A stretch of 64,000 bases of DNA from a virus. The stretch is from IMG/VR virus record IMGVR_UViG_3300020420_000012, positions 1 to 64,000 of that record; one strand, written 5' to 3'. The first letter of the stretch is position 1. The number at the start of each line of letters is the position of its first letter. Below are positions 687 through 45,530 of the stretch, piece by piece. A program made the position numbers and the translations under genes. Below the pieces are notes generated by a model. It did no database searches. It saw only the letters and a program-made list of their open reading frames with translations, and was not told where the DNA came from.

Positions 687-3600
687 TTAATACTCTACAG
701 TTATTTTGTCGATATCTTTACGCTCACCATAAATTGTATAAAAGCAATTGATTTCTTTTTTAATAACGTTATCATTTCCAATAGTTACTACGTTATCAGC
801 TATGTCTTTTACATATAATTTTTGATGCTTACCGATAGGTGTTAATTCTACAGTTATTGTTTCTTCATCAACAAGTCCTGTCCAGTAATCAGGTAAATTT
901 ATCTTAGAACAATTTGCGCGTCCTCTTATATAAACTCCGTTTTCAGGACCCTCGAGAGATCCATATCTTAATCTCTTACCTTTTTTAGTCGGATGTTTGA
1001 TATCAAATGACTTACTAGTCGCTATTAACGGACCGCCAATAGTGAGTGTGTTTGTTGATTTGGCGAATGTAAATTCAGCATCGGCACCAAAAGCACCGCC
1101 ATCATTAAATTGAACCATGGTGTCGCCACCGGCTACTGCTCCACTGCCTGAACCTCCACCTGATATTGTAATAGTTTTAGTAGATCCTGATCCAGAAGCG
1201 ACAACGCCAGCTCCAACAAAATTTAATGTCGTTGCAAGAGTCGATAAGCTACCACCAGAATCTTGTATCGTAATACCGCTACTTATACCTAAGTTAGCCG
1301 GTGTAATTTTTTTCATCGTGCCGCCATCGTCGACTAAGACGAAGTCAGCGTCAGAAGCAGATGTTGTGGTAGTTGGTGCGTTAGAATTAGATGTTGATAT
1401 AAGCGTGCCAGTTGCTGAAGGAAGCGTTAGTACTACGTTACCACCAAATGTTGCATGTGCTGGTGCTTGTATAGCCGCATAGTGTGCGTTAGAATCTTCA
1501 CAATATAATCTTACTTGAGATTGAGTACCAGTATTCTTAACATTAAGTATGCCAGCTTCAATTGTAGCAGAATCAGTTATTAAATGTCCAACAACTTCTG
1601 CACCTGAATCTGATACTGTAAATCTTCTTATGCCACCGTGTGTAATTTGTAGATTACCTGCTCCATTTGCAAAAACGTTAGGTGATTCGAATATTGCAGT
1701 ATTACCACCATTCCAACTAAGACCTTCACCATTACCGGGGTCATTAAATGTAAGTGCATTAACACCATCTATATTATTATTATTAAGTCTTAAAACAGTT
1801 GCTACTGAAGTACTAGTAAATCGTAGAGAACTAGTAGTACCACTTATTGTTAAATTAGTTAAAGTAGCAGAATCAGCGTTAACAGTTCCAGTAACTGTAG
1901 CGCCATAAGCAGAAGTTTTAAACTTTTCAGTTCCATAATGATAAGCAATTGCTTCACCAGTAGAGCCATCGGCTCTAAAGTATTGTGAAATATTACCAGC
2001 GCCGTCGTCAGTTTGTAAAACAATATCTGCGTCATTAGTGTTGTTTCTTATAATAATATCACCAGTTTGATTATAAAGTTCAAAACGAGATCCGGTATGT
2101 TTTATTGTTGTATCATTATCAGTTCCAAATTCTATATTAGCATTGTCAACAAATTTAATACTGTATAAATTTGACGCAACTTTAAGTCTTTTAGCTGAGC
2201 GGTCATAGAATATAGCACCAGCAGAATCAAAATTTACATCTCCGCCAAAGGTAATATCATGATTAAAGTTTGAATCAATCATTGCCTGTGTGGCAGCAGA
2301 ATCAGTTGATGGTAACTGACGTGCTTGTACATACGCGGAATCTACAAATGTTTGAACCCTTGCGTTTGTATAGTATAAGTTGCTTGAACCTTCACTTAAA
2401 TTATCTGTAGTTTTCGTAGCTAATCGATTATCAAATCTTGTATCTGTGTAATATAGGTTTGCACCTTCACTTAAATTAGTAGTTGTAAATCCTGTAAAGT
2501 TACGAGTACCAATTTGAAGTGCATGGCCCATGTAACCATGAGCTGAACATTGATAATGTAATACAGAAGGGGTGGATTCTGTTATTAATATTCTTGCAAA
2601 TGTTGATCCAGTTGTAACGTTGGTTGTATACTGTGTAGTCTTTGCAGCATCATAATAAAATCTAAATGGGTGGCTTGACATATCACTTGAACTGAGATTA
2701 AATTGATATGTTCTTCCAATTTTTAAATTAAGTATTGGTGATTCTGTTCCATCGATATAGTAAGCATTACCACTACCACCGCTGTAAACATGATTTGCAG
2801 TTTTTGAATTAACCGTTACTGTAAAATCTGCAGAATCAATGTGTTGATTTCTCTCAACTGCGGTATTAGCTGAATCTTTTGCTAAGACATAATCACTATC
2901 AAAGTTTTCTTTAGTGTATACATCTTCAACGTCAATACTAAATTGACCTGTTCCAGAGTTATATGATAAATCTCCACTTGCCGAAAACATTCCACGAACG
3001 TTAGCAGAATCAATATTAATAGTTCTTGATGATGCAATGTTACCGCCACCGGTTAATCCATTACCTGCAATTATTGAAACTCCTGTATGAGCAACGTGTT
3101 CATCTGCTACAAAGTCACCGAAGTCATCATGCTTATAAAGAGAATATAATTCTGATGAATCAATCTTAATATCACCAGAAGATAGTCCTATACCAGAACC
3201 GCCTGTAAAGTGAGCTCTTACTTCAGATGCACTAGGTCCTGTATATGTAAATACTCCATTACTTGAATTGTAACTAAAAGATCCGTCACCGCCAGCGTCT
3301 GTCGCTGATACATAACCTCTTATTAGTGGCCTGTAAAAATTTGTAAGTTCAGATGAATCAATCTTAATATCACCTGAAGAGATTCCAATACCAGTTCCGC
3401 CAGTAAAATGTGCACGTACTTCTGATGCACTTGGCCCAGTGTATGTCATTACGCCTGTGCCAGAGTCATAAGTGAATGAACCATCTCCACCCGCGTCAAT
3501 TGCAAGTAAAGAGGCTTTCGCGTCAGAGTCTACACGGGCAGTGGTGTAATATAAGTTAGTGCCTTCAGCTAGATTACTTGTTGTTTTAGTTGTAAGTGCT

Positions 3601-5792
3601 GAATCAAAGTCAGAATCAAATCCTAGGTACTGACCTTCGAAAGGTTTATTAAATACAAACTTATCACCAGATGCTGAATAATTAAGTGTGGCTGACGCAC
3701 CATTTATTGTTATACCTGCACCATCGGCAGCTGCAGCATCTGCAGCAGAATCTGCAAGTACTATGTTCTTATCATTTATACTTACTGTAGTAGAATTAAT
3801 TATCGTTTGTGTACCTTCAACTTGTAAGTTACCAAGTATCTTAACTGTACCAGTGTTATCGCCTACAGTTGCGGGATCAATTATAAATTCTGCAGGACCT
3901 CTTACCTGATTAAATGTAACGTTATCAGTGGTTGCAACTGGTTGTCCTATAGCAATTACACCAGTTGATGAATCATAAGTTACACCCGTTCCGGCGAGTA
4001 ATGACGCCTTTGCTGCGCTATCAGCTCTTGCATCCGTATAATATAAATTTGTTGTGCCTTCTGGAACGTCATCGGTGTTAACTTGATTTGTGCCTGTACC
4101 AAAGTCGATATGAGTATCATCAATACCATCTGCCTTTATACTTACGGCACCTGAAGTTACACTAAAGTGTTCAGTGTCAAATGATGCTATACCTTTGTTA
4201 GATGTGGTAGCATCTTCACCAGATATTTCACCTGATGATATATCAATACCTTCGCCTGCAGAAAAGTGTGCTCTTACTTCAGAAGCTGATGGGCCGGTAT
4301 AAGTTAACTTACCAAGTGCAGAATCATAAGCAAAAGATCCATCGCCACCGGCATCAACCGCGTTTATGAATCCTCTAATATGTTGTCTGAAAAAGTCTGT
4401 AAGTTCTGATGAGTCAATTTTGATATCACCAGAGTTAATTGCAATACCTGAACCACCACTAAAATGTGCCCTTACTTCACTCGCACTTGGACCAGTATAT
4501 GTAAACGTACCAGTAGTAGCATTATATGCAAATGATCCGTCACCACCAGCATCAGTTCCAGATATGTAACCTCTTATTGTTTGTCTATATAAATTTGTTA
4601 GTTCAGATGAATCAAGGCGTATATCGCCAGTTCCACTATTATAACCGATACCGTCGCCACCACTAAAGTGAGCGCGCACTTCGGCTGCGCTTGGTCCAGT
4701 ATAAGTATATGCACCAGTTGATGAGTCGTATGAGAAAGAACCGTCACCACCTGCATCAACAGCCGCCATGTGTGCTCTTACTTCGGTCGCGCTTGGTCCT
4801 CTGTATATAAATTTACCAGTAGCTGATTCATATGAAAAGGCTCCATCTCCACCTGAGTCGATTGCAAGAAAATGTGATCTTACTTCAGTTGAGCTAGGGC
4901 CTGTATATGTAAAAACTCCTGTTGAACTGTTGTATGCAAAACTACCATCACCACCAGCATCAGTTGCTGAAAGATGAGCTCGTACTTCTGCAGGGCTTGG
5001 ACCTGTATAGGTTATTACTCCAGTAGTAGCATTATAACTAAAAGAACCATCACCTCCGGCGTCTGTTCCTGATATATAACCTCTTATGTCTTGTCTGAAA
5101 AATGATGATAATTCTGATGAGTCAATATTAAGAGTGTTTGTTGTATTATTATAGTTTAAACCTACACCTTCGAGTACTGCGCTGTCAAGTGTTAAATTAA
5201 AATCACTATCAAAATTTTCTTTAGTATATACGTCTTCTACATCAAATTGAAATATGCCTGCACCGGTATCATACGACAAATCACCAGCACCAGTAAACAT
5301 TTGTCTTATTTGTGATATAGATCCCTGTAAGTCGATATTTACTGGTGTACCAGTACTATCTTTAGCTCCAAACGTGCCACCTGAATCTTTTAAATTGATT
5401 CCTCCTAAGTGTATCGTTCCACCACTTAAATATAAATCTTTAAACTTCTTAGCACTATCACCTAAGTCAAACGTACTATCAAGAGTTGGTACTATATTTC
5501 CTTGAGTTGAAATACCAGTAACGACTGGAGTTGAACTTGAATCGATTTGAATTAAGAGCTTATCACCGCCTGGAGTATAAAATTTTTCTAAACCATTATC
5601 TGTTAATAAATCGAAATTTTTAAATGCATTTTCTGATGAATCATATACTAATATTTGACCATCAGATTTACTTGCAACGTTAAAATCAGTAAATGCATCT
5701 AGTGATAAGTTTTCGATTGCAGTTGAGACTGGTGTGCCTACTACAATCTTTTTTATAAAAGTTGTTTGACCTACTGTGAGTTTAATTGCCAT
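687..5792 (-). CDS. Long tail fibre / adhesin protein (1701 aa)
   Basis: G/S/T/D-rich with internal repeats and 'LxEGxNLYYT' fibre motifs; C-terminal 'KSFDIKHP..LRYGSLEGPENGVYIRG..LPDYW' domain common at the ends of phage fibres. Confidence 0.85.
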   Translation of the reverse strand: MAIKLTVGQTTFIKKIVVGTPVSTAIENLSLDAFTDFNVASKSDGQILVYDSSENAFKNFDLLTDNGLEKFYTPGGDKLLIQIDSSSTPVVTGISTQGNIVPTLDSTFDLGDSAKKFKDLYLSGGTIHLGGINLKDSGGTFGAKDSTGTPVNIDLQGSISQIRQMFTGAGDLSYDTGAGIFQFDVEDVYTKENFDSDFNLTLDSAVLEGVGLNYNNTTNTLNIDSSELSSFFRQDIRGYISGTDAGGDGSFSYNATTGVITYTGPSPAEVRAHLSATDAGGDGSFAYNSSTGVFTYTGPSSTEVRSHFLAIDSGGDGAFSYESATGKFIYRGPSATEVRAHMAAVDAGGDGSFSYDSSTGAYTYTGPSAAEVRAHFSGGDGIGYNSGTGDIRLDSSELTNLYRQTIRGYISGTDAGGDGSFAYNATTGTFTYTGPSASEVRAHFSGGSGIAINSGDIKIDSSELTDFFRQHIRGFINAVDAGGDGSFAYDSALGKLTYTGPSASEVRAHFSAGEGIDISSGEISGEDATTSNKGIASFDTEHFSVTSGAVSIKADGIDDTHIDFGTGTNQVNTDDVPEGTTNLYYTDARADSAAKASLLAGTGVTYDSSTGVIAIGQPVATTDNVTFNQVRGPAEFIIDPATVGDNTGTVKILGNLQVEGTQTIINSTTVSINDKNIVLADSAADAAAADGAGITINGASATLNYSASGDKFVFNKPFEGQYLGFDSDFDSALTTKTTSNLAEGTNLYYTTARVDSDAKASLLAIDAGGDGSFTYDSGTGVMTYTGPSASEVRAHFTGGTGIGISSGDIKIDSSELTNFYRPLIRGYVSATDAGGDGSFSYNSSNGVFTYTGPSASEVRAHFTGGSGIGLSSGDIKIDSSELYSLYKHDDFGDFVADEHVAHTGVSIIAGNGLTGGGNIASSRTINIDSANVRGMFSASGDLSYNSGTGQFSIDVEDVYTKENFDSDYVLAKDSANTAVERNQHIDSADFTVTVNSKTANHVYSGGSGNAYYIDGTESPILNLKIGRTYQFNLSSSDMSSHPFRFYYDAAKTTQYTTNVTTGSTFARILITESTPSVLHYQCSAHGYMGHALQIGTRNFTGFTTTNLSEGANLYYTDTRFDNRLATKTTDNLSEGSSNLYYTNARVQTFVDSAYVQARQLPSTDSAATQAMIDSNFNHDITFGGDVNFDSAGAIFYDRSAKRLKVASNLYSIKFVDNANIEFGTDNDTTIKHTGSRFELYNQTGDIIIRNNTNDADIVLQTDDGAGNISQYFRADGSTGEAIAYHYGTEKFKTSAYGATVTGTVNADSATLTNLTISGTTSSLRFTSTSVATVLRLNNNNIDGVNALTFNDPGNGEGLSWNGGNTAIFESPNVFANGAGNLQITHGGIRRFTVSDSGAEVVGHLITDSATIEAGILNVKNTGTQSQVRLYCEDSNAHYAAIQAPAHATFGGNVVLTLPSATGTLISTSNSNAPTTTTSASDADFVLVDDGGTMKKITPANLGISSGITIQDSGGSLSTLATTLNFVGAGVVASGSGSTKTITISGGGSGSGAVAGGDTMVQFNDGGAFGADAEFTFAKSTNTLTIGGPLIATSKSFDIKHPTKKGKRLRYGSLEGPENGVYIRGRANCSKINLPDYWTGLVDEETITVELTPIGKHQKLYVKDIADNVVTIGNDNVIKKEINCFYTIYGERKDIDKITVEY
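3207..5065 (-). repeat. Eight copies of a ~30-aa repeat D(A/S)GGDG(S/A)F.Y...G..(T/I)Y.GPS..EVR(A/S)H in the tail fibre
   Basis: Counted by eye in the translation; several copies are separated by an (I/L)DSSEL linker. Confidence 0.9.
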
Positions 5793-13831: not shown

Positions 13832-16800
13832 CTACCAATTTCCATGATCACTAGCATCACCAGCACCCGGACCAGAAGCATCGGCCTCAACGTCTCCAGA
13901 GAAATCATTGCTTGGATTTGAACCTGATTGATCTGCACCATCAGCTTCAACATCTCCGGAATAATCATTGTTATCTCCACCCCACTCATTTCCTGGAGGA
14001 TCACCAGATGTGTCGTTTGCGTTGTCTGCATCTATTTCAGTCCCCGGACCATGTGTGCCATCGCCTTCATCACCACCACCGCCGCCTTGGCTGTTATTGT
14101 TAATGTAGTAACCTTGAATTCCAAGAACTCGAGTTGATGTATATGTTGCTTCTTTTGTATCTAAGTAACCTGTAGCGGTATATGCTGCTGCGGCATGGCT
14201 ACCAGCGTCATCTTCATTATCTACATTTATATCCATTATTTTAAACTTTACTGAACCCGTACGTACTCTTTTGTCATCGTTATTAGGAACAATAAATGAA
14301 CCTACGACTTCGCCGTTTCCATCAGTTACAAGATTGTCTACTGATCCACCAGATGGATGTGTATACACGTCTTTTAAAGTATTTCCTGGATCTGTGTTTA
14401 TGGTTGAATAGTTAGTAAAACCTCCGGTTTCTTCTCTTACTAGATCGCCTAAATTAAATCCATCAATAAATGCAAAATGTTTTGTGTTTGGTCTTAATCC
14501 TGTGGCTTTGAAAAATATTTGTCTCGCTCTACAAAAAGGTATGAACGCTGTCTGAATTACTCTATCTTCTATTAAATCAAGAACAATTTGATCTGATACA
14601 ACTCTATTAACCATATTACTAATTTGTTGAGTTTGATTATTTACCGCTAATTCTTCAGTAGAAATACCACCCCAACTCCATGACCAGTTATTCCAGTTAA
14701 AAGCATTTTGTGTGTTAAGTACTGTTCCGCCAGGTATAGATATGTCTGGCAATCTTTCAACGTCTCTCCATTCATCTGAAGCCGGCGATAAAATAATTGT
14801 GCCTTCATATATTGTAATGTTGAATGGATTTATTCTTATTGCTTTAGTAGCGTCTTTTTGATTAATATATAAATCTTCAGTAAAAGACATGTATATGTTA
14901 TCACCTCTTCTTACAGTGCCTAAAGCCAATGAAGCAGCTGAATCAAAGAATAATTTAACGTTATTTTCTTCAAACGCTGGTCTTAATATATGTCCAATAG
15001 GATCAATAGATGCTCTGTATTCTTTATGAGTAATATCTGATCCTTTATGATTATTAAAATTATCTACAAAAAAACCTGATTTAGTTCTATCATTACCAGC
15101 GGAGTCGAGTACTTCAAGATGTTTTGTATCTAACTCAAGTAAATTTAGCGATGTTATTTCTTCAAGTCTATCAATCCTTTTTTCTATGTTTGTAATGTCT
15201 TTCATTGTATGACGCTTATGTCTTATAGCTCTTACTTCAACGTCAGAGTCATCATCTGTGTTTGGATTTAATTTAATGTCATATAATCCAAGTGTATTTT
15301 CTGGTTTTTCAGGAAATCCTGGATTAAAACCAGCAGTTCCATTAAAAAATCTTACTATTCCATCTCTATCAATAACTAACTTTCCAGTTTTTGCTAAGTA
15401 ATATTCATTTGTTGATAAAGCTAAAGTTCCAGGTTGAGGAAGCTCGTTAACAATTGCTCCTTTAGAAGTATCTGAAAATTGACCAGCAGAATCCATCACT
15501 GATCTAAAATCTAAAAAGTTTCTTAAGAAAATTCTTTTACCACTTGATAATCTAAATGTTGGAATCTTATCGTAATCAATTTGACCATCGTATGAATTAA
15601 CACCAAAAAAGTCACCACCTTGGTGCGTAAAATGCTTGAATGTCACTGTTACATTACCTGTTGGAGCAGTTCTACCTGCTCTTAAAATAAGTCTTCCTAG
15701 TGCATAATGATTGTCTCTTTGACCATCATCGACAAAAAAGTCATCAGCAAATGAAAGACTACTATCAGTTGATTTTACAATTTCATCAACACTAAATATG
15801 TCAGCCTTTGCAAGATTTATTTGTTTGTTAACAACTGTGTATTGCTTAGTAGTGGTTGTTAAAACTTTTTGTCTTTGAGTTGGATTAGATTTATTAACGT
15901 ATGCAAAAACTTGTACCGCTTGACTTGGTGGTAAACCTGTAATTGTTGCACCGGTTCCACCTCCTGTTATGCTAGTACTAGCATCGCCGGTTAAAGTACT
16001 TGGTTGAAATATATCACTATCAGTACCAATTATCCAGTCACCTTCATTTGTAAATACTTCGTTACTTGCTAAACCACTTAATGAAAAAGAACCGGCACCA
16101 TCGGTAGTACCAGTAAACCTTCTTTGTACGGCAAAAGATACAGGTGTTATATTCTTTGGTCTAGGATGAGATACACCAAACAGTGATTTATTTATTGTTG
16201 GTTCTTTTATTGCAGCCTTCGAGTTTTGAAGTACTGGCTCGAAATATTGAGTTCCACTAGTTCCTATACTTTTGACTTGACGAAACGATTTGCCTGAATT
16301 CATCTGTATATCAAATAAATAAAATCTTAAATTATTGCCATCTTCATTTATTGACTTAACACGCGCAGTACCTATTGTTGATCCACCGTAATCTACAGCA
16401 TCTCTTAAATTAAGTTGTTCAAAAATTGCAATGTTAGGTAATTTTTTATTTGAGGTGTCTACACTTGGATTAACAATAACATAATTACCAAACTCTATTT
16501 GCGTAGCTTCGTTTGTAAACGTTAACGTTTCTGTTGGTTTAGCAATTCTTAATGTAGTAGGAAAATCTCTTGCTGCTCTAAATCCTTCGACTACCGCAAC
16601 CCCAGGGCTTACATTCAATAATAAATGAGTATTTTGAGAATCTTTTTCAAAATTTACGAAAAAAGGTTTTACAAAATAATCACCAGAATTTTCTTTAATT
16701 CTTTGTGCGATTACTTTATTAGGTACATTATATGAGTTAGTATCATTTACTGCATTGTAAATTACACCTTTTTTAACAGTTGCGACATGGACAAAATTTT

Positions 16801-17587
16801 CATCAGAATTTACATCACTTCTTTCTGCAAATGTTAAAGTTATTCTATATCTATCTGCTCCAGGTGCAGTTAAGTTTGGATTTGCGCCTTGGTTATCAAA
16901 TAAACTAACGTCGTCTGCTGAAGTTACGACTTGTTCTAAAGTTTTAAATCCAATTTCTGTGTTAGCGTCATCAGAATATTGAGATATTATTTTTGATAAA
17001 TCTTGAGTGAAAACAAAGTGCCCCGCAACGTAGTATATACCTGAAAGAATAGTCGCTTGTATTCCAGCTCCAACAGCAGGATCATCTACAGTATTAGTAC
17101 CTTGAACATCCATTGTTGTGGAGCCACCACCAACAGTAAGAGTTTCACCAGCTGTAAATCTTTTAGTAGTACTTCCACCGCTAGTGCCAGTGTTTATGTA
17201 TTGCACATAAAGAGTATCTATAGAAAGATTGCTTTGCGATGCCGGCAAAACTTCAATTATTTTTGCTACTATCGAAGATGTACCACCTTGAATGTTTTGA
17301 TTAACTATTGTGCTAGTATCAATACCTGATAGAGCTCCTCCAGCTAATTTAACAAACTCATACCTACTGTTTAAGTTTACACCACCAGGTTTGACAACGC
17401 CACCTTCTTTAAATACATTATTACCAAATCTTGTAATTTGTTCTTGTAATATAGTTTGTAATTGATTTAGTTCTCTAGCTTGTAATGCTTTTCCGGAGTT
17501 AAACAGTATTTTATGAAATCCTGCACTATCCGAAAAATCATCTTTATAAGTTGTACTAAAAGTTTGATTTGTTAATGTACTTACCAT
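13832..17587 (-). CDS. VrlC/DUF4815-like large baseplate/tail structural protein, N-terminal part
   Basis: 'Y.DDF....FHKILF..G.ALQARELNQLQTILQ.QI..FG..VFKEG', 'APGADRY.I.L', 'R.KSGFFVDNF'. Confidence 0.8.
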   Translation of the reverse strand: MVSTLTNQTFSTTYKDDFSDSAGFHKILFNSGKALQARELNQLQTILQEQITRFGNNVFKEGGVVKPGGVNLNSRYEFVKLAGGALSGIDTSTIVNQNIQGGTSSIVAKIIEVLPASQSNLSIDTLYVQYINTGTSGGSTTKRFTAGETLTVGGGSTTMDVQGTNTVDDPAVGAGIQATILSGIYYVAGHFVFTQDLSKIISQYSDDANTEIGFKTLEQVVTSADDVSLFDNQGANPNLTAPGADRYRITLTFAERSDVNSDENFVHVATVKKGVIYNAVNDTNSYNVPNKVIAQRIKENSGDYFVKPFFVNFEKDSQNTHLLLNVSPGVAVVEGFRAARDFPTTLRIAKPTETLTFTNEATQIEFGNYVIVNPSVDTSNKKLPNIAIFEQLNLRDAVDYGGSTIGTARVKSINEDGNNLRFYLFDIQMNSGKSFRQVKSIGTSGTQYFEPVLQNSKAAIKEPTINKSLFGVSHPRPKNITPVSFAVQRRFTGTTDGAGSFSLSGLASNEVFTNEGDWIIGTDSDIFQPSTLTGDASTSITGGGTGATITGLPPSQAVQVFAYVNKSNPTQRQKVLTTTTKQYTVVNKQINLAKADIFSVDEIVKSTDSSLSFADDFFVDDGQRDNHYALGRLILRAGRTAPTGNVTVTFKHFTHQGGDFFGVNSYDGQIDYDKIPTFRLSSGKRIFLRNFLDFRSVMDSAGQFSDTSKGAIVNELPQPGTLALSTNEYYLAKTGKLVIDRDGIVRFFNGTAGFNPGFPEKPENTLGLYDIKLNPNTDDDSDVEVRAIRHKRHTMKDITNIEKRIDRLEEITSLNLLELDTKHLEVLDSAGNDRTKSGFFVDNFNNHKGSDITHKEYRASIDPIGHILRPAFEENNVKLFFDSAASLALGTVRRGDNIYMSFTEDLYINQKDATKAIRINPFNITIYEGTIILSPASDEWRDVERLPDISIPGGTVLNTQNAFNWNNWSWSWGGISTEELAVNNQTQQISNMVNRVVSDQIVLDLIEDRVIQTAFIPFCRARQIFFKATGLRPNTKHFAFIDGFNLGDLVREETGGFTNYSTINTDPGNTLKDVYTHPSGGSVDNLVTDGNGEVVGSFIVPNNDDKRVRTGSVKFKIMDINVDNEDDAGSHAAAAYTATGYLDTKEATYTSTRVLGIQGYYINNNSQGGGGGDEGDGTHGPGTEIDADNANDTSGDPPGNEWGGDNNDYSGDVEADGADQSGSNPSNDFSGDVEADASGPGAGDASDHGNW

Positions 17588-39185: not shown

Positions 39186-39548
39186 CTAGTTTCTACGCAT
39201 TGTTGCATATTCTTTTGCATCTGCGTTCTTACTTACAGGCACCATGTTTGATTTATGCATGGTAGCAATACCTGTTATAAAAGTGCCAGTGTAAGTATTT
39301 GATTTAGACTTACCAACAATAGGACCCGTATAGTCACTTGTTGGTAGAGCTCGTGAATGCTCCTTATAATTAGGAGCTTTAATACCTGCATTCTTAGTTT
39401 TATTTTTTAACTGTGATGGATGTACACCACGCTTCATTAACCAAGCATCATGTTCTGCTTGTGCTTTTTGCCAGCCGGCTTTACGAAAAGTTTTACGCTT
39501 TTTACTATTGTTATTGTTGTAATATACTGGCATTAAGTGCATTGTCAT
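39186..39548 (-). CDS. Hypothetical basic early protein
   Basis: 'YTG..I.GIATMHKSN.VPV.....AK....MRR' motif; own promoter. Confidence 0.7.
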   Translation of the reverse strand: MTMHLMPVYYNNNNSKKRKTFRKAGWQKAQAEHDAWLMKRGVHPSQLKNKTKNAGIKAPNYKEHSRALPTSDYTGPIVGKSKSNTYTGTFITGIATMHKSNMVPVSKNADAKEYATMRRN

Positions 39549-39576
39549 AATATAATCCTTTTTTTATTATACTTAT

Positions 39577-39605
39577 ATTTTACCATAGTTTTTCGTAATT
39601 GTAAA
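39577..39605 (-). promoter_or_regulatory. Early promoter TTTACA-N17-TAAAAT
   Basis: -35 at 39600-39605, -10 at 39577-39582. Confidence 0.7.
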
Positions 39606-39765
39606 GGAAAAAAATCAAAATTATTGAAATAATTATCACAATAGAGAATCTAAACATAAATCCTACTATTGCGACAATTGTACCAACAAGAATAGCACCA
39701 GCTACTGCGAAGAAGAGGAGTTGAAAAAATAGTGGTGCCAGTTCTTGTATCTCTACAAAGGTCAT
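39580..39765 (-). CDS. Small membrane protein
   Basis: 61 aa with two hydrophobic segments; ATGA overlap with the upstream ORF. Confidence 0.55.
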   Translation of the reverse strand: MTFVEIQELAPLFFQLLFFAVAGAILVGTIVAIVGFMFRFSIVIIISIILIFFLYNYEKLW

Positions 39766-39956
39766 GTTCTATACCTTTGTATTTCATCAGGTCCAGAATT
39801 ATTTGATAATTCTGGACTTTTATTCTTTAAGAAACTAATCTCTTCATTAAGTTCTTTAATTCTCTTATACAAAGCGTACTTCTCTTTAGTTTCTTCTGCT
39901 AACTGCTTTTTTAGTAAATCTATCTTAGTGGATAGTTCCATCGGGTTCGTCATCAT
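39762..39956 (-). CDS. Small coiled-coil hypothetical protein (start probably at MMTNPM, shorter than the ORF track call)
   Basis: 'LAEE.KEKY.LYKRIKEL' coiled coil; GGAGGAG SD-like sequence just upstream. Confidence 0.55.
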   Translation of the reverse strand: MMTNPMELSTKIDLLKKQLAEETKEKYALYKRIKELNEEISFLKNKSPELSNNSGPDEIQRYRT

Positions 39957-40131
39957 CAAACTCCTCCAGCTTAAATATAAATTCCATACCGTTATCATTA
40001 TGAGCTTGATGAACCATTTCACCGAGCTGATAATCATCACCTTCAACGGTAAAAATTATTTCATTTTCATCGTTAAATTTTTTAGCGGTTGCTTTTTTGA
40101 AATCAATTATATTAGATTTTTTTCTAGACAT
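39925..40131 (-). CDS. Hypothetical acidic early protein
   Basis: AGGAG SD and early promoter upstream. Confidence 0.6.
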   Translation of the reverse strand: MSRKKSNIIDFKKATAKKFNDENEIIFTVEGDDYQLGEMVHQAHNDNGMEFIFKLEEFDDDEPDGTIH

Positions 40132-40160
40132 TAAAACTCCTAATTTTTTATTATAGTTAT

Positions 40161-40189
40161 ATTATACACTACTTTTAAGTGAATGTACA
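40161..40189 (-). promoter_or_regulatory. Early promoter TGTACA-N17-TATAAT
   Basis: -35 at 40184-40189, -10 at 40161-40166. Confidence 0.8.
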
Positions 40190-40200
40190 CAAAAAAGTGT

Positions 40201-40602
40201 TTAACCTGTTAAATGTTTTGCATGAATTCTACAACCTATAAAGTTGTTGTAGTAATCATCTCTAAACAATACATTGTGATCAAACTGAAGCTTTGCTTCA
40301 TAGTAAGACATTTCGCCTTTTGTTTTACAGAGTTTTAATATTTCACGCTTAAATCTTTCTTTTCCATGTTGTTCCACGAGTTGGCGTACTTCATTTGATG
40401 ATCCATAATAATCTTTCCAGTCTGATTCAACACGCGTTCGTACACGTCTCTTACGTGTCTTATTGACGGGAAGAACTTTAGGTTTCCAGAAGTTCTTCTT
40501 TCCAATATACTTTTTGTTGTTATGAATTTCTGTGAGTTGATATACAAACCCTTGATAGTCTTCTGGTGTTACTTCAAATAATTCATTATTATAATACCAC
40601 AT
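40201..40602 (-). CDS. GIY-YIG family endonuclease
   Basis: 'GFVY.L.....KKYIGKK', 'ESDW..Y.GSS', 'F.REIL.LC', 'Y.E...Q', 'YYN'. Confidence 0.8.
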   Translation of the reverse strand: MWYYNNELFEVTPEDYQGFVYQLTEIHNNKKYIGKKNFWKPKVLPVNKTRKRRVRTRVESDWKDYYGSSNEVRQLVEQHGKERFKREILKLCKTKGEMSYYEAKLQFDHNVLFRDDYYNNFIGCRIHAKHLTG

Positions 40603-40610
40603 AAAGTTAT

Positions 40611-41864
40611 TTATTCTTTTTTATAGACAGCACCTCGTAATGCCAATGGGCTTGTCGCTTGTAATATTGGTGTATTGATACCAACAGGCAAAGGTTTTGT
40701 TGGCTCAAATTTTGGCAACAGTGGTAATAATATTAGAAAATGAAAGAAGTAATATCCTGTTGCTAATCTACTTAACGTAACATATATTCCTTCAGCTGGC
40801 ATTGCACCGAGATATCCAAGTGCTATACAGTCAATAAACAATATCCAAAAGAATATTTTATATAAAGGTCTAAAATTTGAACTACGTATAGGCTGTCTGT
40901 CAAGCCAAGGTAAAATAAAAAGTACTACTATTGCACCAAACATTAATAGTACACCGCCTAATTTATCAGGTACCGCACGCAGTATAGCATAAAAAGGTAA
41001 AAAGTACCATTCAGGTACAATGTGTGCGGGTGTAACCATTGGATTTGCTGGTATGTAATTATCAGGATGACCCATAAAATTAGGAAAGAAAAACACTGCT
41101 GCTGCGAAAAATGTTAAGAATATACCTAGTCCAAATAAATCTTTTATAGTATAATATGGGTGAAACGGTATAGTGTCTTGTTTTCCTTTAACATCAATAC
41201 CTATAGGATTATTAGAACCAAATCTGTGTAATGCTACTAAGTGTAATATTACAGTGCCAACTATTACGAAAGGTAACACAAAGTGTAAACTAAAAAATCT
41301 ATTTAACAATGCGTTATCAACACTAAATCCTCCCCATAGCCATGTAACGAATTGTTCACCTACCAGTGGTATTGCACTAAACAAGTTTGTTATTACTGTA
41401 GCACCCCAAAAACTCATTTGACCCCACGGCAGTACATAACCCATAAATGCAGTTGCCATCATTAATAGTAATATAAAAACGCCAAGAATCCAAAGAAGTT
41501 CACGCGGTGCTTTATATGAACCATAATACAGTCCACGAAATATATGTATGTACGTAACTATAAAGAAGAAGCTAGCACCATTCATATGAATGTATCTTAT
41601 TAACCAACCGTGATTTACATCTCTCATTATTCTTTCAACTGAATCAAACGCATAGTCTACATGAGCAGTATAATGCATACTTAATACTATACCAGTTACA
41701 ATCATAATTACAAGGGATATGCCTGCTAAAGAACCAAAGTTCCAAAAATAATTTAAATTTTTTGGTGTAGGATATTCGTTAAGTTCGTGATTCATAAACG
41801 TAAATATGCCAAGCCTATGATCTATCCAATTAACTACAGGATTTTTAAATTTAGTTTTTGCCAT
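40611..41864 (-). CDS. petB: Cytochrome b subunit of the cytochrome bc1 complex
   Basis: 417 aa; 'WNFGSL', two haem-ligand His pairs ([14 protein letters not shown]; [15 protein letters not shown]), '[19 protein letters not shown]', '[16 protein letters not shown]'. Confidence 0.97.
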
Positions 41865-42055
41865 TAAAAGTCTACGTCTATTCCATTTATACTATAAGTC
41901 TTACCGTTGAAACCTTTATCCATCTTTTCTTTATCAGTCATGTTGTCACTGTTAATTCTTTTCCAAGGATTGAACTTCTTCTGCTTCTGCTCTCCTACCA
42001 CAGATCGGGCAAAAAACAGGTTTTTGATATGATGCCACATAAGAAGTTTCATCAC
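41864..42055 (-). CDS. Hypothetical protein
   Basis: 63 aa; ATGA overlap upstream and TAATG overlap with petB. Confidence 0.55.
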
Positions 42056-42225
42056 ATTCTTCGCAATCTATCTGGTAATCTTTCAAGAATTTTCTTCTTT
42101 CTTTTTAAACTTGCTGTTGACCATTCCGCTATCTCTTGTGTCGATCTGCCACAGCCAATACAAAAATTGTCTTGTAGAGTGCAAATCTTTATACAAGGTG
42201 AAACGACTTTAGAAATCGATTTCAC
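42052..42225 (-). CDS. DUF1289-family small Cys-rich protein (likely GTG start at 42225)
   Basis: 'SPCIKIC....FCIGCGRS..EI..W' signature. Confidence 0.75.
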   Translation of the reverse strand: MKSISKVVSPCIKICTLQDNFCIGCGRSTQEIAEWSTASLKRKKKILERLPDRLRRM

Positions 42226-44422
42226 AGGCGCCACCTGCGCAGGCGGCTGCAGCGAGTGTATCAACATCGGTATACTTTCTTTCTTTAATATCTTCTTTCC
42301 AATCTACTGTCATAAGTGTCGATTGTATCTTATTCCACTTATGAAGTAGATACGCATCCTTTAAACAATGCTCAGCTAATGTTGTATCTGATTTTAAATA
42401 ATTATCAGCAAACTTTCCAAACCTTCTTATCCAATCTCTTTTAAGAGCATTTTCAGAAGTTTCTAGAGATATATCTTCACCAAACCCTTTTGCGGTTGAA
42501 CACGCATCCCATAAGTTATTAAAACATTTTAAGGCGTCCACGACCATACCTGACGCAAATACTGCTGCATCACCATATTTCTTCACCATATCTTTTGAAG
42601 TAATGACTGCCGTGTTTGGAGCTTGATTATAATCTTTATCACCACTCATAGATAAAAATGAAATACCAGCAAAAGAATCTCTGTTTTCAAAAACATATCT
42701 TTCAACATCATCCCAATTATCAACTATTATAGTATTTGAAACATTATGCCTAACGCCACTGTCTGCGCATAAATCTTCATTTGTGCCAGCTTCAACCCAA
42801 TGTTTTTGAGCTTTCTTTACAAGTTCCAAATGTTTTATACCTAGTAAGTCATCTTTATACAAAGAACCTTTTTTTGGTAGTATAGGAAAAGAAACAACAA
42901 CATCAGTGCCACCAGCAGACCATACTGAATCTTCTACCATATAAGGATTGGTCTTCATAATAGCTTGAGTTATTTCTGATTCTTTATTCATTTGTACGTT
43001 TCTTATATACATGTCAGAATGCTCAGCATGAATGCCAGATGCAGTTTGTAATAATACAGAAGCATTACCACTTGGCTTTACACACGTAGTTCTTGCTGCA
43101 GGATTGATTTTAATAATCATGGCAACTTCTCTATTTACTTCTTTAACTATCTTTGCGCCTTTTTCTAATATTTTTTCGTTAAATAAAATATCAGGATTAT
43201 TCATCCATCCAGTAATTGAAACTCCAAGTAACGCTTCTCTATCAAAGATAAGTTTTGATGTGTCAGTTAAAAACTTAAAGTCAGTGTACCCTGCTTGTAG
43301 GGTACCGAGGATAGACGCTGCTCGACATGCCTTATAAAAGTCTTCCTCGGTATTGCATTTGCCTCCGTTGATTTCAGTCAGGTTACAGCCTTGCCAACCT
43401 GACTTTTTATTAATCTGAGGATACATACCAATCTCAACACATGGATTAGTTGTATGCTCTTTTGATTCAACAAAGACGAATCCGGGTTCGCCAAATTGTT
43501 TGACAGATTCCATAATCTTGCCAAACTCTTCAGGTGTAGTCTTGTCTCTAACAATAACTGCAGAGTTGTTTGACCTACCTCTTTGCGGATTTTCCATAAA
43601 CCAATTCCCAGTTTTTGCGTTCAACATCTGTTCGTCATCTGGTGAGAATAAACATATTGTTGCAGATCTTCTTACACCACCGGATAATACAGCATCTGCT
43701 GCATGCATAGTGATATCATATGCATCAATAGGTTTGATTTCTATTGGTTCTTTGGAATCTAATACAATACCTTGTAATAAATGTTCTATCTTGTCTAAGG
43801 ACCTACGTAAACCGTTCGGTCCTGGTGCTTTAAATCCACCTGATATATAAGCACCCTTTGGTCTTATTTGTGATAAATCGAAATAAACTCTTCTTCCTTC
43901 GTATTCTGGATATTTACCTCCTCCAACAAAAAAAGAAGACATTAATATGTCTAATGCTGAAGCCCAACCTTCAATTGAATCTTCAACTATGTAACCTTTC
44001 GCTTGCTTTGTTCTATTTTGAATTTTTGGTAATTTTTTAATATGATGCTTTTGGACAGAGAAACCTGCACCAGCACCGCATAATAAAATATAAAACACTT
44101 CTCCAAAGAATGCTGGTCTGTCGACATAAGAAGACGTACAGTTATACATTCTCATTTGATGTTTCATTAATTGCTCGCCGCCAAACTGTAGAGCGCGTTG
44201 CGCACCAAGAACTCTTTGTTCTTTATAAGCTGTACGCGCCTCATCTAAGTAAGTAGCTAATTCATTATTATAGTTAATATAATTTTCGTCGTGCATGTTT
44301 ATAACACGATCGACAGCCTCATCCCAAGTTTCATATCTACCATCATCATCTTTAAATCTAGAATATCCTTCATAAAACTTAGTTTGAGACAAAAAATCTC
44401 TTGTGTCAACTTGTTGTTGCAT
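42209..44422 (-). CDS. nrdJ: Class II (adenosylcobalamin-dependent) ribonucleotide reductase
   Basis: 'YNC', 'GGVRRSA', 'NPCVEI', 'CNLTEI', 'TCVKPSG', C-terminal 'CAGGAC'; no beta-subunit gene adjacent. Confidence 0.85.
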   Translation of the reverse strand: MQQQVDTRDFLSQTKFYEGYSRFKDDDGRYETWDEAVDRVINMHDENYINYNNELATYLDEARTAYKEQRVLGAQRALQFGGEQLMKHQMRMYNCTSSYVDRPAFFGEVFYILLCGAGAGFSVQKHHIKKLPKIQNRTKQAKGYIVEDSIEGWASALDILMSSFFVGGGKYPEYEGRRVYFDLSQIRPKGAYISGGFKAPGPNGLRRSLDKIEHLLQGIVLDSKEPIEIKPIDAYDITMHAADAVLSGGVRRSATICLFSPDDEQMLNAKTGNWFMENPQRGRSNNSAVIVRDKTTPEEFGKIMESVKQFGEPGFVFVESKEHTTNPCVEIGMYPQINKKSGWQGCNLTEINGGKCNTEEDFYKACRAASILGTLQAGYTDFKFLTDTSKLIFDREALLGVSITGWMNNPDILFNEKILEKGAKIVKEVNREVAMIIKINPAARTTCVKPSGNASVLLQTASGIHAEHSDMYIRNVQMNKESEITQAIMKTNPYMVEDSVWSAGGTDVVVSFPILPKKGSLYKDDLLGIKHLELVKKAQKHWVEAGTNEDLCADSGVRHNVSNTIIVDNWDDVERYVFENRDSFAGISFLSMSGDKDYNQAPNTAVITSKDMVKKYGDAAVFASGMVVDALKCFNNLWDACSTAKGFGEDISLETSENALKRDWIRRFGKFADNYLKSDTTLAEHCLKDAYLLHKWNKIQSTLMTVDWKEDIKERKYTDVDTLAAAACAGGACEIDF

Positions 44423-44456
44423 TTTTTTCCTCTATCTAATTTTTGATTGTATAGTT

Positions 44457-44485
44457 ATTATATATTAAAAACAGGTTTTTGTAAA
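44457..44485 (-). promoter_or_regulatory. Early promoter TTTACA-N17-TATAAT for the nrdJ-petB operon
   Basis: -35 at 44480-44485, -10 at 44457-44462. Confidence 0.7.
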
Positions 44486-44489
44486 GGCA

Positions 44490-44708
44490 TTAATCATCAT
44501 TTTTTGAAAAATATTTTTCAATCATTTCAATTCTATCATGCGCTGCAGACATCTTATCGAGTTCTGCGATAACTGCCTCAGTTACATCACTGTGTTCACC
44601 TATACCAGCCGGCATAGTTTGATATACTTTTATGTTTGCTTTATGTACTTCAAGTTCTCCTTCAGCTTGTTTCTTAGCTGCAAATAATAAATGATCGCCT
44701 GCTTTCAT
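44490..44708 (-). CDS. Conserved small hypothetical protein
   Basis: 'EG....H.AN..VY...P.GIGEH.D..EA...E' pattern; GGAG SD. Confidence 0.7.
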   Translation of the reverse strand: MKAGDHLLFAAKKQAEGELEVHKANIKVYQTMPAGIGEHSDVTEAVIAELDKMSAAHDRIEMIEKYFSKNDD

Positions 44709-44709
44709 T

Positions 44710-45294
44710 TTAGTCTCCTATTTTTGCGTTCACGTCTCTATGTTTATTCCAAGCTACAAACCCACCGAGTCTTAATGCCCAGTAAGCAAGATAGTTTAAG
44801 AAATAAAAACCATTTACTTCAATATTAATGTCTCTAAATGTTTTATCCATCCATTTTTGAGTCTTAATACCTATTGTCTTTTTGTTTTTTAACAACAATG
44901 TTTCATACTTATATCCATAATCATGTATGAGACCGCCAATTAATAATACACCAACTGGTGATAAAAATTGACCTAAAAATTTTGGCACACTAGCACCATC
45001 AAATTTAAATCCTTTTGGTATTATAAAATTATTACCATTCATTGAATAATTAAAGTCTTTTACTACTTCCCAATGTCTTGAACTAAACGACCATAATAAT
45101 AATGCACCCCAAAAACCTTTTCCTTTAGTTGCAATAGGAATAGGTTTCATGTGTGGAAATTCTTTATATTTAAAATTTACTCTATTATCTATTTTCTTAT
45201 CAAATAGATTGATTATGAATCCAATAATTACTAGTATAATAAAAACTGTCATTGGCCAAAATTGAGTGGCTAGACCTAAAATTAAATCTGTCAT
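44710..45294 (-). CDS. DUF1353-family protein with N-terminal transmembrane helix
   Basis: 'IP.GF.FDGASVP', 'HDY.Y', 'D..F', 'Y..LR.GG'. Confidence 0.7.
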   Translation of the reverse strand: MTDLILGLATQFWPMTVFIILVIIGFIINLFDKKIDNRVNFKYKEFPHMKPIPIATKGKGFWGALLLWSFSSRHWEVVKDFNYSMNGNNFIIPKGFKFDGASVPKFLGQFLSPVGVLLIGGLIHDYGYKYETLLLKNKKTIGIKTQKWMDKTFRDINIEVNGFYFLNYLAYWALRLGGFVAWNKHRDVNAKIGD

Positions 45295-45530
45295 TTTTTA
45301 CTCCTCATTTGTTCTTGCATCTCTAACGCTGATTCGTTATCAATGCATGCAATTTCTACTAACTTCATATTAGGAAATTTAAGTTTAATGCCAGCTTTTA
45401 CATATTGATTATAAGTTTTAAGATATTCGACACATTCTTCTTTTGTGTTAAAAATAAAATTTTGATTTATTTTAAAACTAATTAAATCTGTATTTGGATA
45501 TGTTAAAGCTGCTATTAAAAACCAAATCAT
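45291..45530 (-). CDS. Hypothetical protein
   Basis: 79 aa with hydrophobic N-terminus and two Cys; coupled overlaps. Confidence 0.55.
   Translation of the reverse strand: MIWFLIAALTYPNTDLISFKINQNFIFNTKEECVEYLKTYNQYVKAGIKLKFPNMKLVEIACIDNESALEMQEQMRSKK

Follow-up and report, generated by a model that had tools for sequence, protein, structure and literature searches.

Why would a T4-like marine phage carry the gene for one core subunit of the respiratory bc1 complex? Cyanophages with auxiliary metabolic genes that serve photosynthetic electron flow are in the textbooks; phages of heterotrophic bacterioplankton with a core subunit of the respiratory chain are not. The gene considered here, petB, lies in a 64,000-nucleotide stretch of viral DNA (hereafter the window; positions 1 to 64,000 of IMG/VR record IMGVR_UViG_3300020420_000012). 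An earlier note, made from the letters of the window, had read it as a respiratory analogue of psbA. We asked what the gene encodes, where it came from, how it is maintained and what it may do for the phage.

Results and Discussion

The Phage Gene Encodes a Complete Cytochrome b

petB (40611 to 41864, minus strand) begins with ATG, and its open reading frame translates into a 417-residue, full-length cytochrome b of a bc1-type complex III. Both Pfam domains of the family, Cytochrome_B (PF00033, 1.6e-77, residues 30-216) and Cytochrom_B_C (PF00032, 1.9e-44, residues 272-373), are found in the single polypeptide. Residues 8-395 align with solved cytochrome b chains from mitochondrial and bacterial bc1 complexes, the closest solved structure being cytochrome b chain 8bel_C (E 1.2e-152). 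The histidine pairs 93/107 and 194/208, each with a spacing of 14 residues, are present in 64/64 viral and 79/79 cellular rows of our alignment; we take these four residues to be the ligands of haems bL and bH on helices B and D. The PEWY motif at 284-287 and His, Lys and Asp at positions 213, 241 and 242, which we assume to represent the Qo and Qi sites, respectively, are unvarying across all 64 viral rows. Counted by group, the haem histidines, PEWY and the Qi-site residues are kept in 32/32 rows of viral clade A, to which the window belongs, in 32/32 rows of a second viral clade (clade B) and in 78-79 of the 79 cellular rows. Within clade A, 315 of the 417 positions are invariant, including every catalytic residue checked. 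The earlier description of an intact 417-residue cytochrome b bearing four haem-ligand histidines, PEWY and WGATVITN therefore stands, with all of these elements in the translation and the Pfam matches, the alignment with solved chains and the residue counts in agreement.

petB Recurs in T4-like Phage Genomes

The window comes from an IMG/VR virus record that is 81,635 bp long and, by CheckV, an estimated 39% complete. In the window, Pfam identifies gp32, SegE and ribonucleotide reductase genes as well as baseplate wedge, hub, tail tube cap and tail-fibre families, and structural phage genes flank petB on both sides. Judged by these families, the DNA is a fragment of a T4-like myophage. Among isolated phages, those with the most similar baseplate wedge protein are Phage C48C1 (45%), the Methylophilales Melnitz phages (37%) and Pelagibacter phage HTVC008M (36%).

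Scanning viral contigs yielded 76 loci with a petB relative. In 38 of these the gene is 89-95% identical to the window copy and in the other 38 it is 56-67% identical. A protein with 92% identity (P0007) is also encoded on an ENA contig of 215,109 bp. As far as each contig reaches, 30 of the 38 close-petB loci have the neighbour genes of the window, and the remaining eight carry a near-identical petB in another phage backbone. The full order nrdJ-DUF1289-(small ORFs)-petB-segE is displayed by 22 viral loci, segE comes next after petB in each of the 26 window-type loci long enough to show it, and every viral petB copy not cut by a contig end (63/63) is full-length. The second petB backbone is represented by a 131.6-kb viral record (L026), in which radical SAM genes, a serine hydroxymethyltransferase gene and a gene for a DAO-family oxidoreductase lie near petB; its stretches rich in metabolic genes are found at 1362-4128 and 14717-17015.

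The window is part of a metagenome-assembled fragment, and low GC is also a property of its nearest cellular relatives, so that a chimeric assembly, or cellular DNA misfiled as viral, has to be considered. The gene order of the window, sought in viral contigs as the earlier note had proposed, is common to 30 independent contigs of many metagenome ids, which repeat the junctions on both sides of petB and thus rule out the chimeric assembly that the note had named as a possible refutation. In addition, phage structural genes lie on either side of petB in the window, and the segE/petB junction is spanned by an RNA-library contig of a relative. We regard the chance of an artefact of either kind as practically negligible, and the observation of a phage-borne lone cytochrome b is confirmed as real and robust.

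Among isolated phages, a tblastn search of PetB against 50,697 phage records gave a single match, and none of these records carries this gene. The match lies at the very end of Helicobacter phage Pt11470_1 (PQ159902.1, 35792-36760 of 36761), in a cytochrome b-like sequence of 42% identity that is annotated as hypothetical and is probably host DNA at the edge of a prophage.

No Partner Subunit Genes Were Found in the Viral Fragments

Neither the window, as the earlier note had stated, nor the whole 81,635-bp record, to which it had suggested extending the search, contains a Pfam match to a Rieske protein or a cytochrome c1. Likewise, tblastn searches with SAR116 and SAR11 PetA and PetC gave no match in the 76 viral loci and the window, and petA and petC are absent from five further clade-A records of 32-132 kb; all viral records searched are fragments (20-47% by CheckV), and a partner gene may lie elsewhere in the genome. 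In the cellular relatives L078, L079, L084, L133 and L159, petB is part of a petABC operon. The phage protein has the same Pfam domains as the cytochrome b of Rhodobacter and Paracoccus (PetB/FbcB; 1zrt, 2qjy, 2yiu), falls in the same length class and shares its haem ligands and Qo/Qi residues; it differs from alphaproteobacterial PetB/FbcB in being encoded in a phage, outside any petABC operon, and in bearing a few lineage-specific substitutions. We also clustered the 1,048 same-strand ORFs located within 3 kb of petB in the 76 loci. None of the resulting families lay next to petB in all three viral contexts of the gene, a procedure that tiny proteins could escape.

With no partner genes in any viral DNA examined and no neighbour gene common to the three viral contexts, the phage protein could be imagined to act as a stand-alone di-haem protein, be it an electron sink linked to quinone, a modulator of membrane potential or a block to superinfection, to name some examples. 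We consider such a role quite improbable, as no viral row departs from PEWY or from the Qi residues, which are relevant only to a full Q-cycle, and as the protein is 84% identical to a cellular subunit that is encoded in an operon.

The Gene Chain around petB

The chain that contains petB starts with a gene for an nrdJ-type class II B12-dependent ribonucleotide reductase (42209 to 44422, minus strand). Its Pfam matches to ribonucleotide reductases are weak; the product aligns over 98% of its length, at 61% identity, with a protein of Rhizobium phage RHph_I1_18, its ribonucleoside-triphosphate reductase. Just upstream of nrdJ lies a sigma-70-like, early-type promoter (TTTACA-17 nt-TATAAT, 44457 to 44485, minus strand) that matches the consensus at 11 of 12 positions; no other site of this kind within 39500-45500 scores as high, and it is in line with the early promoter that had been placed ahead of the chain. 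Its hexamers are unchanged in 17/17 aligned sequences, from the window and 16 related loci, in which spacer and flanks differ. The motif TATAAATA, which we take to be the late-promoter motif of T4-like phages, is present beside the structural genes, and none was found between about 32.3 and 49.7 kb.

Downstream of nrdJ, a gene for a small Cys-rich DUF1289 protein (42052 to 42267, minus strand; Pfam DUF1289 6.5e-17) occurs in related loci both with and without petB. With the ATG at 42267 as its start, the gene shares 59 nt with the end of nrdJ. The true start may be a GTG at 42225, for which the overlap is smaller and the Pfam match (3.4e-17) just as good.

The earlier note had described the chain as nrdJ, DUF1289, a 63-residue ORF, petB and a GIY-YIG nuclease gene. 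The nrdJ, DUF1289, petB and SegE genes of that order are borne out by Pfam, whereas the 63-residue ORF (41864-42086, minus strand) did not survive as a single gene. Codon-position analysis of 21 distinct sequences showed that its first part codes in another frame and that the proposed frame is used in no more than the last 19-25 codons. In the region 42050-41955, variability at the three codon positions is 0.109, 0.049 and 0.143, which fits the frame of a 44-residue zinc-ribbon protein (CxxC...CxxC; 41952 to 42086, minus strand, TTG start) and not that of the 63-residue ORF. Pfam zinc-ribbon matches to this small protein are weak and all below the cut-off, and its gene belongs to the phage backbone. 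The rest is a micro-ORF of 25 codons (41864 to 41941, minus strand) with a conserved 19-codon core from 41923, whose codon-position variability (0.029, 0.036 and 0.206) has a coding pattern and whose last 19 residues are nearly identical across the 21 distinct sequences. On this codon evidence, the 63-residue ORF is an overlapping-frame artefact made up of the zinc-ribbon gene and the micro-ORF. The stop codon of the micro-ORF overlaps the start of petB in the TAATG sequence previously pointed out as a coupling overlap. No Pfam match was obtained for the micro-ORF.

Two further ideas about these small genes were rejected. The zinc-ribbon gene was considered as a partner of petB, but it is also found in petB-less loci, e.g., L239, L241, L242 and L281. 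The micro-ORF was considered as a remnant of the 3' end of a donor petA; its likeness to the PetA C-terminus is a chance match of seven residues.

Directly downstream of petB lies the gene for a SegE-like GIY-YIG homing endonuclease (40201 to 40602, minus strand; Pfam SegE_GIY-YIG 4.9e-36).

Capture from a SAR116-type Bacterium

In a comparison with one cellular genome per species, the best cellular match to the phage PetB is the SAR116-cluster single-cell genome L078 (84% identity), with the Pelagibacteraceae at 63-67%. L078 has the gene order petA-petB-petC in a locus with a GC content of 0.305. The alphaproteobacterial look that the earlier note had remarked on is in keeping with these SAR116-type nearest relatives. 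Its appeal to phage-like AT-rich codons, on the other hand, turned out not to be diagnostic, as GC3 is 0.218 in the phage petB and 0.244 in the nearest cellular gene (L078).

In a FastTree of 143 rows, clade A (32 rows) is a single group with a support of 93 and has L078 as its sister (99). In a 60-row IQ-TREE and in a further tree, clade A received SH-aLRT values of 99 and 95, respectively, giving the phage-specific clade that had been named as a favourable outcome of such a phylogeny. The starred group of the 60-row tree also includes L078 and metagenome proteins of 84-88% identity. These proteins (P0012 type) bear the cellular residue signature, and a metagenome locus of L078 type, L159, has petABC and is 93.4% identical to L078 and 88.5% to P0012. 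Phylogenetically, these comparisons show that petB passed from a low-GC SAR116-type alphaproteobacterium into a lineage of T4-like marine myophages, and such bacteria are probably the host group of the phage.

Beyond the window, the record encodes a permuted tmRNA with the tag ANDNFAPQEFAQAA at 68774-69117 (L158 4774-5117, minus strand). Of five genomes tried, only L078 significantly matches the phage tmRNA, inside its own permuted tmRNA (tag ANDNYAPVAAAA), and the likeness is mostly in parts conserved among alphaproteobacteria. This match may be a hint of a SAR116-type host.

A Second Viral Cytochrome b Clade

The second viral clade (32 rows; loci L035-L077) groups with Fonsibacter-type and other Pelagibacterales behind a branch with a support of 100, and tblastn with SAR116 and SAR11 queries found no PetA or PetC in its loci either. 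A tree forcing all viral rows together was 513 log-likelihood units worse (p-AU 1.9e-41), in a test whose constrained viral group was named after the tree was seen. As a single clade for all viral rows is rejected, there were at least two captures, each of a lone subunit. Rows of the second clade interleave with cellular rows of Fonsibacter-type and other Pelagibacterales, and P0237, grouped as cellular, is identical to the viral L047. In 12 of the 38 second-clade loci (e.g., L050 1522-2658), petB directly follows class I ribonucleotide reductase-like genes, a putative assignment made from N-terminal sequence. Adjacency of petB to ribonucleotide reductase genes, putative ones in the second clade, is a tendency of both viral clades.

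Selection and Virus-Specific Residues

We estimated dN/dS, as the earlier note had proposed, for the 471 of 496 clade-A pairs with dS above 0.05. The medians were 0.072 for dN, 1.63 for dS and 0.041 for dN/dS, with a maximum dN/dS of 0.117; dS is saturated for most pairs and the values are rough. The closest listed pair, the window and L010, has a dN/dS of 0.038 at a dS of 0.785. By these estimates, the phage petB is under strong purifying selection.

At eight positions the clade-A consensus differs from the residue of at least 85% of the 79 cellular rows, namely P19G, V104T, I172F, P185A, T186L, L196V, S324Q and V326I. The combination G-T-F-A-L at 19, 104, 172, 185 and 186 occurs only in viral-type rows, the nearest cellular-type rows having P-V-I-P/S-T. 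Residue 186 (about 41307-41309 in the window) is Thr in 99% of the 79 cellular rows and Leu in clade A; in clade B it is Phe in 16/32 rows, while Fonsibacter-type cellular rows keep Thr. Compared in this way, the change at residue 186 looks like a convergent virus-specific change.

These substitutions might themselves be what the phage gains, through a bc1 complex retuned in inhibitor sensitivity, radical by-products or regulation. Such an interpretation would account for a clade-A consensus set apart from the cellular rows at eight positions, for a five-site pattern confined to viral-type rows and for the loss of Thr 186 in clade A and in half of the clade-B rows. Set against this, only 8 of 417 positions are involved, none of them a nameable catalytic residue, and neutral founder effects in the clade could account for the substitutions. 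On balance, retuning as the main value of the gene appears rather unlikely.

petB Is Optional Cargo Next to segE

The distribution of petB among relatives of the phage was followed in a scan anchored on nrdJ, in which the best 80 of 468 matches were kept, 75 of them with at least 700 nt downstream. Within this set (best 80 of 468), petB is present in 15 of the 75 related loci and missing from 60, so the phage does not need it. In the 60 petB-less loci, again from the best 80 of 468 nrdJ matches, segE comes directly after the DUF1289 and zinc-ribbon genes. The segE gene itself is kept in all 80 related loci (best 80 of 468), while the neighbouring cargo varies. These counts mark petB as flexible cargo of a hotspot that lies ahead of the segE homing-endonuclease gene. 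Four loci of the best 80 of 468 matches have the micro-ORF without petB, and other, unrelated ORFs of about 210-250 residues occupy this place, after the zinc-ribbon gene and before segE, in L254 (2527-3466), L259 (7162-8101) and L303 (7204-8144).

A SegE-family GIY-YIG gene adjoining a variable insert is likewise found at the seg-type homing endonuclease loci of T4. The present locus differs from these in that the endonuclease is constant in the 80 related loci (best 80 of 468) and the cargo varies, and homing is putative. On the 60-row IQ-TREE, the petB copies of the two phage backbones intermingle, and these interleaved copies suggest exchange between phages.

An arrangement of this kind could also arise if petB were a selfish passenger that spreads with segE without benefit to the phage. 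The position directly upstream of segE, at a site filled by other cargo in other phages, the occurrence in only 15 of the 75 related loci (best 80 of 468) and the intermingling of the two backbones would all be compatible with it. A useless gene should decay, yet 63/63 uncut viral copies are intact, none of the catalytic residues has been lost, and dN/dS is about 0.04 at a synonymous divergence near saturation. A passenger without benefit is, in our view, very improbable.

Signals in RNA Libraries

Traces of the locus occur in RNA libraries. One library contains two 151-nt contigs identical to petB (unstranded, with DNA carry-over possible), and another contains nrdJ pieces at 98-99% identity, for which DNA carry-over is likewise possible. 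The RNA-library contig that crosses the segE/petB junction belongs to a relative and is subject to the same reservation. The shares in the RNA runs are small (0.05-0.11), and parts without cover are uninformative. The deepest RNA bin, 41318-41463, coincides with the conserved WGATVITN stretch shared with cellular petB and probably derives from cellular genes. Altogether, the RNA contigs are few and give no more than a hint of petB expression.

A Proposed Role in Host Respiration

With moderate confidence, we propose that petB is a host-derived auxiliary metabolic gene and that its lone cytochrome b supports host respiration during infection, as a respiratory counterpart of cyanophage psbA. As found for such genes, petB has phage genes on both sides, a cellular derivation, a phage-specific clade and purifying selection; it also displays the presence/absence polymorphism of an insert that is expected of homing-endonuclease cargo (15 of 75 loci, best 80 of 468). 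petB would be read together with nrdJ from the conserved sigma-70-type promoter upstream of nrdJ, and hence early in infection, and its translation would be coupled to the conserved micro-ORF. The phage cytochrome b would then insert into the host membrane, bind two host-made haems and join the Rieske protein and cytochrome c1 of the host. The resulting bc1 complexes would sustain quinol oxidation and proton-motive force through infection, which is where a benefit to the phage may lie.

The cyanophage genes psbA and psbD, which encode D1 and D2, are host-derived, form phage clades, evolve under purifying selection and are not universal in their phage group. petB shares with them the host derivation, the phage clade, the purifying selection and the patchy presence, and in both cases T4-like marine phages carry one core cofactor-binding membrane subunit while the rest of the complex is missing. 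The differences are that petB would serve respiration, that its host would be a heterotroph and that no rapid-turnover rationale is known for cytochrome b. A replacement view modelled on psbA assumes a rapid turnover of the host cytochrome b, the weakest point of the comparison, and we know of no reason for replacing this protein, unlike D1.

Earlier encounters with the gene family in viruses are few. In the parts of the literature available to us, phage cytochrome b appears as list entries and in one whole bc1 set, and no dedicated study was found. Table 1 of Roux et al. (2013; PMC3877843) lists K00412 (CYTB, petB) with 7 reads in 2 viromes, and the same K00412 is a list entry among virome genes in a 2023 catalogue (PMC10653327). 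The entries in these marine virome catalogues concern the same gene family and come without genome context, phylogeny, selection or host. The main text of a pelagimyophage survey does not contain the word "cytochrome" (PMC7029224). A complete bc1 gene set is described, among many host-like genes, in a temperate Nitrosospira phage (10.64898/2026.05.02.722434). As far as that description goes, the Nitrosospira phage also carries complex III genes, but all three subunits in a temperate phage, whereas here a single subunit recurs across many contigs of a lytic-type T4-like phage. New in the present work are petB as optional cargo at the segE hotspot, the promoter hexamers invariant in all 17 sequences and the division of the supposed 63-residue ORF into a zinc-ribbon gene and a micro-ORF.

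It is tempting to go one step further, although we do so tentatively and hold the wider picture to be possible rather than probable. Phages of streamlined ocean heterotrophs may have independently taken a lone cytochrome b at least twice, from SAR116-type bacteria in one case and SAR11-type bacteria in the other, may keep it working and may trade it at a homing-endonuclease hotspot, and the viral versions that lack the near-universal Thr before helix D may build a virus-tuned respiratory chain. If this wider picture is true, cytochrome b would be the component of bc1 that is limiting or prone to damage during infection, like D1 in photosystem II. The presence/absence polymorphism of petB (15 of 75 loci, best 80 of 468) and its few virus-specific substitutions are ready-made experiments. 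Mitochondria retain cytochrome b in their own genome, and the phage gene raises the question of why it is cytochrome b alone, the same subunit, that is carried here. If the proposed role is true, viruses directly rebuild complex III in SAR116-type cells and, via the second clade, in those of SAR11 type. Few respiring cells in the sea are as abundant as these, and the respiration of infected cells would then run partly on viral protein.
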